This document shows positions 12,001 to 15,000 of a stretch of 18,580 bases of DNA, in pieces; position 1 is the stretch's first letter; the number at the start of each line of letters is the position of its first letter. Origin of the DNA: a virus (Duplodnaviria > Heunggongvirae > Uroviricota > Caudoviricetes); the IMG/VR virus record IMGVR_UViG_2537562015_000012. One strand, 5' to 3'. The position numbers are program-made.

Positions 12001-15000
12001 AATCTTACCGGAAGGTTTTGTGCTCGATGAACAACCTGATAACTCACAGTTTCCTGATAGTTCACAGCTTCCTGATGGTTTTGTGCTTGATGCCCAACCA
12101 GAACAGCAGCAATCACCTTTGGTTTCACCAGAGGAAAATTCCAGACAGGAAAATGTTGTTAATAATGCTAACGGTTTCGACCGTTTTATGTATGGCGTTC
12201 TCAGTGGATTGATGGATGTTGGTAAAGGTGTTGGCCTGTTTCAGGATATGACACCAGAAGAGCAAGCCGCAATTCAGTCTCTACAGCAGAAGTTAGCGGC
12301 AAAACCATCAACCGCACAAGATGTTGGTGAGTTCGTTGGACAAGCAGCGCCATTTGTTAGTGGTGGTGGGATTATTTCTCAGGTTCCCAAAGGGGCGGCA
12401 AGACTGGCTGCCGCCGCAGGGCTTGGTGCTGGAGAAGGGGCTATTGTAGCCAATGGAACAAATAGCGATGTTGCTTCCGGCGCTGCTATTGGCGCTGTGG
12501 CTGGCCCTGTAGCCGAACTTGCTGGCCCTGCAATTAATAAAATAGCTGGGAAATTAACCAAGAAGAATGTTTCTTCGATTCCAGATATTGAGGGGATTAC
12601 TCCTGCCGAAGAGAAAATTCGTAAGTTATCTGCACAAGGCAACCCAAATCTTGCCTCTTCGCTTGAAGGGCTAGATCTAAAACCTCAGAAAGAAATTGTT
12701 GAGGCTGCAAATAGGCTTCATGTTGATTCAGTTCTTCCTTCTCATTTATCAGGAAATGAGCAATACCAAGCTGTAGAGCAAGCCCTAAAGTCACGGACAG
12801 GATCAGCGTTAAAAGCTCAAGAAGATAAAGCAATAAGCGAATTAGCCTCTAGTGCTGGCAAGATAATCGATGATGTTGCTGGTGCGCCAGATGCGTTAGC
12901 TATGAGCGAAAAATATATTTATCAGATAAATAGTAGAATGGAAGCACTAAAAAACCGTAGTGATCAGTTATATAAACGTGTTGATTCCGCTCTATCACCA
13001 AGAACAAAAGTCGAAGCAAATAACACAAGCACTATGCTGGAAAAAATCGCTGATGATTTAGGAGGGTGGGATAATCTTGACCCAATAGAAAAGCGAGTTT
13101 TTACAGCAATAAACCCCGGCCCAGATAGCATCCTAACGTATGCAAATTTAAACAGGCAAAGGCGTTTAGTTGGTGATGCCCTAAATAAAAAGCAGGGGCC
13201 ATACAAAGATGCTGATAAAGAAGCGCTATCAAGACTATATGGAGCTTTAGCTGAAGACCAAAAATCTGTCTTATCCAATACTGGATACTTGCGAGATTTC
13301 GAAGTCGCACAACGCCTTGTAGCTATGAGAAAAAACTTAGAAAGGCAAATGGTAAATCTTCGCGGGAAAACACTTAATGGGGATATAGCGTATAAAGTAA
13401 CGAATTCTCTTCAATCTATGGCAAAAGGTGATGCGAGAGGGTTTCGTGAGATTATGCAAAATACTCCATCAAGAACATTGCGAAGGGAGCTAGTAGGAAC
13501 AGCATTAAGAGATATGCTTTCCTCTGGGAAGCGTGGGGCCGACTTTAATCCATCTGGCTTCGCAGATTGGTGGCAAAACTTGCAACACAGTGGACAGCTA
13601 AAGACTTTGGCTGAACATTTGCCAAAAGAAACAATGAGCGGACTATATGATGTATACAAAGTTGCCAGAGCAATAAAAAATGCTAAAGCGCATGAAATAT
13701 CTACTGGTAAGCTGAATGAGTTTGTAAACAGATTTAATCGGGTAACAGCTCCATACGAACTAGCAGCAAAACACATTCAAAAAATAGGCACGATGGTAGG
13801 CGCTCATTTTGGATCGCTTGGAGCCATTGCTGGGGCTGATATTGGAGCAAGATTGGCGAGTAAAGCTCGATTAGCTGGTGGAGCAGGGGCGGCTGATGCT
13901 GCGGATAAATTAATTGCCTCGCCAGCCTTCCAGAGCGCAGTAAAAAATCTACACGGAAAAGCGCCTGGGCACATTGTTGATTCACGTATCAGGCGCTCCC
14001 CTCAATGGAAGAGTTTTTTTAACTCTCTTCCTGAACAGGAAAAACGGACCATCGCCAGACTGGGCATCATTACTTGGCGGTGATGCTGCCAACTTACTGA
14101 TTTAGTGTATGATGGTGTTTTTGAGGTGCTCCAGTGGCTTCTGTTTCTATCAGCTGTCCCTCCTGTTCAGCTACTGACGGGGTGGTGCGTAACGGCAAAA
14201 GCACCGCCGGACATCAGCGCTATCTCTGCTCTCACTGCCGTAAAACATGGCAACTGCAGTTCACTTACACCGCTTCTCAACCCGGTACGCACCAGAAAAT
14301 CATTGATATGGCCATGAATGGCGTTGGATGCCGGGCAACTGCCCGCATTATGGGCGTTGGCCTCAACACGGTTTTACGTCACTTAAAAAACTCAGGCCGC
14401 AGTCGGTAACCTCGCGCATACAACCGGGCAGTGATGTGATTGTCTGCGCGGAAATGGACGAACAGTGGGGCTACGTCGGTGCTAAATCACGTCAGCGCTG
14501 GCTGTTTTACGCGTATGACAGGATACGGAGGACAGTTGTGGCGCACGTTTTCGGTGAACGCACTCTGGCCACACTGGCGCGTCTTCTGAGCCTGCTGTCG
14601 GCCTTTGAGGTCGTGGTATGGATGACGGATGGCTGGCCGCTGTATGAATCACGCCTGAAGGGAAAGCTGCACGTTATCAGCAAGCGTTACACTCAGCGCA
14701 TTGAGCGACATAATCTGAATCTGAGACAACATCTGGCAAGGCTGGGACGGAAGTCACTGTCGTTCTCAAAATCGGTGGAGCTGCATGACAAGGTCATCGG
14801 GCATTATCTGAACATAAAACACTATCAGTAAGTTGGAGTCACTACCTTACTTGGCTATCTAATGATCCAGATAATGACTAGTGAATGGCCACGGATGGCC
14901 TCAATCTTTATTCTTTGAAATAGAGTCATTGATCTTTTCGAAACACCAATGAAATCCACAAAAGAGAGCTACACCAATATAACAATACAAAACTATCAAC

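Follow-up and report, generated by a model that had tools for sequence, protein, structure and literature searches.

The question raised by this locus is whether a complete copy of the insertion sequence IS1, lodged near the 3' end of a phage-type gene, records a recent event, and whether the event changed more than the last codons of that gene. The DNA analysed here (18,580 nucleotides of IMG/VR virus record IMGVR_UViG_2537562015_000012, hereafter called the window) corresponds to a genomic island at the 3' end of yicC, adjoining dinD, in Escherichia coli, and the gene in question encodes a protein homologous to the third ejection (DNA transfer) protein of P22-like phages. We consider it very probable that the arrangement represents a young IS1 insertion in the ejection-protein gene of the island, by which the tail of the protein was clipped, and that it is probably a case of near-neutral decay.

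The IS1 element and the gene that it interrupts

Positions 14079-14846 (+ strand) of the window were occupied by a complete, full-length IS1 of exactly 768 bp, whose transposase genes point in the same direction as the interrupted gene. The imperfect 23-bp inverted repeats, IRL (14079-14101, + strand; GGTGATGCTGCCAACTTACTGAT) and IRR (14824-14846, + strand; reverse complement, GGTAGTGACTCCAACTTACTGAT), agreed at 18 of 23 positions. Between them, insA (14134-14409, + strand) encodes a protein of 91 aa, the zinc-finger/helix-turn-helix regulator and N-terminal part of the transposase, and an A6C -1 frameshift motif (TTAAAAAAC, 14383-14391) joins it to the 167-aa reading frame of insB' (14328-14831, + strand) to give the InsAB' transposase. 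The insA product matched both NCBIfam transpos_IS1 (5e-26) and the zinc domain of IS1/IS1595 (2e-10); the score of InsA alone against transpos_IS1 (91.9 bits) was under the full-protein cutoff of 100 because the query covers only the first 81 of the 199 profile positions. In RefSeq/PGAP, DNA of the same sequence carries the annotation 'IS1 family transposase, programmed frameshift' with no pseudogene label, and many copies annotated on plasmids of E. coli and Shigella matched at 100% identity over 768-769 bp. The element was flanked by the 9-bp target-site duplication TTACTTGGC, the left copy (14070-14078) and the right copy (14847-14855) showing zero mismatches; 9-nt stretches at two fixed flank positions would agree by chance with a probability of about 4e-6. 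The intact element with insA/insB and the perfect 9-bp duplication of the original prediction were confirmed in both coordinates and sequence.

The interrupted gene (11987-14083, + strand) now encodes 698 aa ending in ...GIITW-R-stop. Its open reading frame (ORF) continues for 5 bases within IS1, where bases 3-5 of the element, inside IRL, form the new stop codon TGA (14081-14083); all three frames entering the element from the left close within 0-8 codons. After in-silico removal of IS1 and one duplicate, a protein of 705 aa was obtained, with the tail ...GIITWLSNDPDND followed by TAG. The orphaned 3' end of the gene (14856-14881, + strand) encodes, together with base 14855, the residues LSNDPDND and then the native stop TAG (14879-14881). 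IS1 had swapped LSNDPDND for one Arg and left the sequence 5' of the site unchanged. That the site lies 8 codons before the native stop, with GIITW-R-stop in place of the restored LSNDPDND tail, was seen both in the sequence and in natural alleles.

The interrupted protein matched PHROG families phrog_6704 over its full length (6e-173) and phrog_770, 'DNA transfer protein' (1e-50). It showed 41% identity over the whole length (residues 1-706) to Kapi1_058 of Lederbergvirus Kapi1, and 63% identity over the C-terminal 71% to proteins of Sf101 and APC_JM3.2 annotated as transglycosylase or DNA transfer protein. The upstream partner (10659-12002, + strand), a phage DNA ejection protein at the position of P22 gp20 (PF16928, 2.5e-73), was 74.7% identical to Kapi1_057, and its gene overlaps the interrupted gene by 16 nt (11987-12002). 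By this homology and by gene position, the interrupted gene is assigned as the counterpart of the third ejection (gp16-position) protein of P22-like phages. No Pfam family was assigned to the protein, which is without the PF26808 and SLT transglycosylase (PF01464) domains common in phage homologues; Kapi1_058 and several full-length homologues are also without PF26808/SLT, so that this feature is not universal. No PDB sequence matched at E <= 0.01, and the NCBIfam search likewise returned nothing. Residues 1-41 of the clipped protein (window 11987-12110) contain a near-duplicate segment (LPEGFVLDEQP...LPDGFVLDAQP), which takes the place of the PF26808/SLT domains present in many phage homologues. 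We infer that the island protein would either equip helper-built capsids that carry island DNA or compete with the helper's own protein.

Two further observations concern this pair of genes in other strains. In the sister island of strain H10407, the gp20-type gene (locus L002, 15581-16924, the counterpart of 10659-12002) is a pseudogene with an internal stop, and the 705-aa gene is intact. In three publicly recorded E. coli proteins (P0003, P0004, and P0043), an integrase Arm-DNA-binding or gp20-type N-terminus is fused to the C-terminal 46-59% of the protein at 99-100% identity, which implies that other strains have lost large internal parts of the island.

Age and distribution of the insertion

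The restored junction (2 kb, with IS1 removed in silico) was queried against 5,426 complete E. coli genomes. It was present in one piece at 100% identity in the diarrhoea-causing, enterotoxigenic E. coli (ETEC) strains E8, E54, E1316, E1433, E1535, E1620, E2386, B2C, TW10598, 2014EL-1346-6, and H10407, with a single TTACTTGGC in these empty sites; at least 80% of the query was present in 84 genomes. In both H10407 and E8, the gene is annotated at 705 aa and ends in the predicted tail. The insertion was found in three of the 5,426 genomes, namely E1739 (Bangladesh) and E1648 and E1654 (Indonesia), all of which matched the whole 18.58-kb window at 100.0% reported identity and carried the same IS1 and the same duplication. 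The IS1-free strains E8 and E54 matched the remaining ~17.8 kb of the window at 100.0% reported identity. In a larger protein collection, the exact truncated protein was present on 19 public contigs, including draft genomes of 2013, and a single intact 705-aa variant accounted for at least 1,000 contigs; the intact allele is likewise carried by numerous unrelated E. coli and by Escherichia marmotae, and H10407 has it at a second site on the chromosome.

The insertion is derived, clonal, and young, and it is no assembly artefact. It is taken as derived and young because the intact allele occurs at 100% DNA identity in sister strains and the insertion in only 3 of 5,426 genomes. The recent event proposed in the original prediction is supported by this rarity together with the IS1-free sisters that otherwise share 100.0% reported identity, and alleles with the LSNDPDND tail proved to be the common form, by which an IS1-only arrangement in the relatives was refuted. 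Since IS1 is present in high copy number in these genomes and repeats can be misassembled, it was considered that the element might be an assembly artefact, or that the IS1 form might be ancestral and the empty sites products of precise excision. Three independent complete assemblies are, however, identical base for base, and the W-R-stop junction protein occurs on the 19 contigs, including short-read drafts of 2013. An ancestral IS1 form would need many separate precise excisions, given the intact allele in unrelated E. coli, at the second site in H10407, and in Escherichia marmotae, and the tail on all homologues in other genera and in phages. Either version is therefore exceedingly improbable. 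Nothing was found that contradicts the insertion event itself.

The best bit score to the window was given by E1739. At window 17744-18580 (dinD), the product is DinD WP_493789532.1 in E1648 and E1654 and WP_001300958.1 in E1739 and E8; the different accession in E1648 and E1654 fits their slightly lower bit score and indicates that the window is closest to E1739. An origin from a plasmid was rejected, since the flanks matched chromosomes only and the lone 'plasmid' match was a record of 4.9 Mb. A literature search on IS1 in ETEC lineages returned nothing specific, and a long-read paper on ETEC L2 contained no mention of IS1 or of these strains.

A second, separate IS1 was found in the same gene of ETEC L1_E925 (LR883050), with 0 mismatches over 768 bp and in the opposite orientation (locus L003, 3693-4460). 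The site maps to 13763-13770 of the window, close to codon 595 and ~310 bp upstream of the window insertion, and the element is flanked by an 8-bp duplication (GCAGCAAA). One shared event in all four IS1-bearing genomes was rejected, because the E925 insertion differs in site, orientation, and duplication. ETEC chromosomes with the island at 99.9-100% identity each contained at least 38 places matching the window, almost all of them IS1, and other island-bearing E. coli contained 5-7. As the island itself accounts for 1-3 pieces, this corresponds to at least about 35-38 IS1 copies per ETEC chromosome, which indicates that IS1 is abundant and active in this ETEC lineage and that it has undergone expansion there.

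From these data the following course of events is proposed. An active IS1 copy would have transposed into the chromosome of an IS1-rich ETEC sub-lineage (at least 38 IS1-matching places), with the InsAB' transposase making a staggered 9-bp cut at TTACTTGGC and gap repair doubling the 9 bp. The target was the last '+'-strand gene of a ~17.7-kb EcCIMP1-like phage-inducible chromosomal island (PICI), 8 codons before its stop.

Consequences for the gene and its neighbourhood

According to the original prediction, the protein remains nearly full length and is probably still expressed. The first part agrees with the 698 of 705 aa retained, and expression is plausible, but the W-R-stop end falls outside the range of homologue tails. 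Of 120 homologues inspected, 116 had a complete C-terminus carrying the motif [A/S]R[LIMV]G-x-x-x-W. The conserved Trp is followed by one hydrophobic residue (L, V, A, I, or M) and then by a tail of 5-40 residues (median 10) that is rich in Q, D, S, E, and N and unconserved in sequence. At least 5 residues were present beyond the Trp in 116 of 116 homologues, and 67 of the 81 distinct tails carried a net negative charge. The truncated protein is probably still made, without its short acidic tail, and judged from these comparisons some or all of its function may be lost.

The most likely interpretation, as far as it can be drawn from sequence comparison, is that an accessory module of a resident satellite has undergone neutral decay, with no regulatory change. 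Two findings weigh against it. The first is the tail itself: a feature that is family-wide both in length and in its mostly negative charge makes it possible that its loss affects function, and neutrality does not follow from the loss of merely 8 codons. The second is the presence of two independent IS1 insertions in one 2.1-kb gene of closely related strains, which could mean selection for inactivation and not drift.

The insertion might accordingly be adaptive, inactivation or modification of the ejection-protein gene having been selected in the ETEC lineage, for example if the protein were costly or interfered with a resident helper phage. Besides the paired insertions, such selection could account for the internal stop in the adjacent gp20-like gene of H10407, for the deletion and fusion derivatives P0003, P0004, and P0043 in public data, and for the persistence of the IS1 allele long enough to be sampled in both Bangladesh and Indonesia. 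On the other hand, the lineage has at least 38 IS1-matching places per chromosome. IS1 insertions accumulate in AT-rich, non-essential, horizontally acquired DNA, and the interrupted gene, AT-rich at 44% GC and part of such DNA, is a typical target. The gene is intact in most of the listed island-bearing genomes, including the nearest relatives, and scattered, differing lesions fit relaxed selection equally well. An adaptive origin is for these reasons considered unlikely. A more specific form of the idea, that the ejection pair decides whether satellite DNA is delivered from helper-built P22-like capsids or poisons helper delivery, with the acidic tail being needed and the IS1 insertions representing selected loss of function, is given a similarly small chance; if it were true, the two IS1 insertions of ETEC lineage 1 would serve to immobilise or disarm the island and would not reflect drift.

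It had also been predicted that the insertion parts the operon from its terminator and that outward promoters of IS1 could alter expression of the convergent gene. That gene (14901-15296, - strand) encodes a small hydrophobic protein of 131 aa as annotated, or of 141 aa if translation starts at the first ATG; the protein has about four hydrophobic segments and a weak Bax1-I match (4e-5, below cutoff). The principal effect of IS1 might then be regulatory, through uncoupling of the terminator and antisense transcription into this membrane-protein gene. The geometry is suitable, as IS1 and the 3' end of the gene (14901) are 54 bp apart and insA/insB' point toward the gene, and a GC hairpin (GGCCA-CGGA-TGGCC, 14887-14900; 5-bp stem, dG -7.8 kcal/mol) stands between the native stop (14879-14881) and the convergent stop (14901-14903). 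The ends of IS1 can, as Prentki and colleagues are said to have found in 1986, supply -35 elements to hybrid promoters.

The promoter and terminator scans did not bear out this expectation. The promoter scan covered 1.8 kb with a threshold of at least 9 of 12 matches and a background taken from shuffled sequence. It recovered CTGCCA-16-TATGAT at 14086-14113, in the left end of IS1, which is the known location of the insA promoter. No promoter-like site with at least 9/12 matches was found at the right IS1 junction, where the best candidate by eye (TTGGAG-17-TATCTA) reached 6/12, and a hybrid or outward promoter at the right end was rejected on this ground. One outward-facing match inside insB' (14686-14714) was at background level (6 sites over the whole 1.8 kb versus 2.9 +/- 1.5 in shuffles). 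The supposed terminator is the 5-bp hairpin, the sole structure between the two stops, and no intrinsic terminator was called after the native stop. The hairpin escaped the scan because its 3' side is T-poor (4 T in any 8-nt window); a canonical intrinsic terminator was thus rejected, and the hairpin may act as a weak bidirectional terminator or as a stabiliser of RNA 3' ends. It remains downstream of IS1, only 777 bp further away, and continues to separate IS1 from the adjacent gene. The strong polarity of IS1 would lower read-through and not raise it, and this polarity is without a victim because no gene lies downstream on the + strand. Both parts of the predicted regulatory effect were at most weakly supported, and a primarily regulatory consequence is judged highly unlikely.

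The interrupted gene had been described as the final gene of a large operon. It is indeed the last gene on its strand and of the '+'-strand block, but the block contains two sizeable intergenic gaps (8744-8919 and 9878-10351), is not necessarily a single operon, and may comprise more than one transcription unit.

Returning to near-neutral decay as the preferred explanation, the insertion is real but ordinary, and it is already annotated in public genomes (RefSeq). In E. coli and Shigella lineages rich in IS1, such insertions into accessory DNA are routine and carry little weight alone. What is new here is the setting: an EcCIMP1-type satellite as host, a homologue of P22-like ejection proteins as target, a tail kept across the family, and a second independent IS1. 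The insertion provides a clean clonal marker of an ETEC sub-clade (three complete genomes from Bangladesh and Indonesia, and 19 contigs), the window and E925 alleles are natural mutants for the role of ejection homologues in EcCIMP1-type satellites, and the universally kept acidic C-terminal tail of the ejection-protein family is a feature open to experiment.

The host island and its comparison with known systems

The ends of the island were set by comparison with the empty yicC-dinD site of ATCC 8739. They lie ~188 nt before window base 1 and at ~window 17529 (locus L001, 4735-22451), so that the island measures ~17.7 kb including IS1. Gene identities were taken from Pfam, PHROG, and RefSeq annotation. 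A tyrosine integrase (1-1269) is followed by an AlpA-type helix-turn-helix (HTH) protein (2388-2606), a PM1773-family protein, AntA, DUF4222, Ash, and several small ORFs, and then by a Toprim/DUF5906 primase (6392-8743), ORFs of 76, 245, and 100 aa, the phage DNA ejection protein, and the interrupted gene. The small membrane protein and two small ORFs follow on the other strand, and a PerC-family regulator (16767-17054) comes last. A conjugation (tra/VirB) operon, which had been considered from gene sizes, was rejected, as Pfam and PHROG show integrase, AntA, Ash, primase, and phage ejection proteins. None of 10 island proteins matched a defence system in PADLOC.

Three sets of repeats were observed on the island. 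A direct repeat of 24 nt, CGTGTACATA(GA/AG)GGTGTACATAAT, is located immediately within both ends of the island (window 17437-17460, and ~58-81 nt upstream of base 1; L001, 4842-4865), and each copy has an internal GTGTACATA repeat. These copies may be arm-type binding sites of the integrase or excisionase; they were rejected as an att core because the empty-site comparison places both inside the island ends. Two perfect 19-nt direct repeats (ACCTGTACCACCTATACCA; 8773-8791 and 8858-8876, 85 bp apart) are located in the intergenic region just 3' of the primase. The usual place of PICI replication origins is just after the primase gene, and by this position the 19-nt repeats are candidate iterons. 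A 23-nt motif, ATTT(C/T)(G/A)(T/C)GA(C/G)CA(G/A)TACGCGCGCG, occurs in three intergenic copies (15444-15466, 15730-15752, and 17330-17352), around the minus-strand small genes and near the right end of the island, and these may be putative regulator binding sites.

Compared with the IS1 family, the window element is no different in kind. Its length, inverted ends, insA/insB' frameshift, 9-bp duplication, and identity to plasmid copies are all shared with the family, copies annotated as IS1X2 being 98.5% identical to it, and it is particular only in its insertion site.

Compared with P22-like phages, the same gene order and the same 16-nt overlap with the gp20-type gene are found in Kapi1 as in the window. 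The conserved C-terminal ...ARLGxxxW motif and the acidic tail of the P22-like ejection proteins are shared by the restored island protein; the difference is that those proteins are phage-encoded, whereas the protein here is encoded by a satellite island and has moreover lost its tail through IS1.

The closest verified relative of the island is EcCIMP1 of E. coli MP1. Experiments showed that EcCIMP1 undergoes excision and transfer only in the presence of the P22-like helper phage Kapi1, and the genes that follow its primase are similar to 'DNA transfer' proteins of Kapi1, with their role left open by the authors (ISME J 2025, PMC11773190). From the layout of integrase, AlpA-type regulator, and primase in a single orientation, the ~10-18 kb size class, the attachment site, and the relatedness to EcCIMP1, the present island is classed as an EcCIMP1-like PICI of the Gram-negative type. 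The two share the same layout (integrase, AlpA-type HTH, PM1773, AntA, DUF4222, Ash, small ORFs, primase, 'DNA transfer', and PerC). Eight regulatory and replication genes, including PM1773, AntA, Ash, and small ORFs, have 84-100% aa identity, and the N-terminal half of the EcCIMP1 primase is 85% identical to that of the window. They differ in the integrase (29% identity) and in the attachment site, EcCIMP1 being located at tRNA-Thr and the window island at the yicC 3' end. The C-terminus of the primase is DUF5906 in the window and DUF927 in EcCIMP1, the DUF2824 and gp7-position genes are absent from the window, the gp20-like proteins are 25% identical, and the last gene of the window has no match to the 906-aa transglycosylase protein of EcCIMP1 at 1e-5. 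The IS1 of strain MP1 sits in a neighbouring island, outside EcCIMP1. An element in H10407 carries the cargo of the window at 99.8-100% identity behind an EcCIMP1-type integrase at tRNA-Thr. These relatives in H10407 and MP1, located at tRNA-Thr with a different integrase, show that the island family is mosaic and that its integrase and ejection-protein modules have been swapped.

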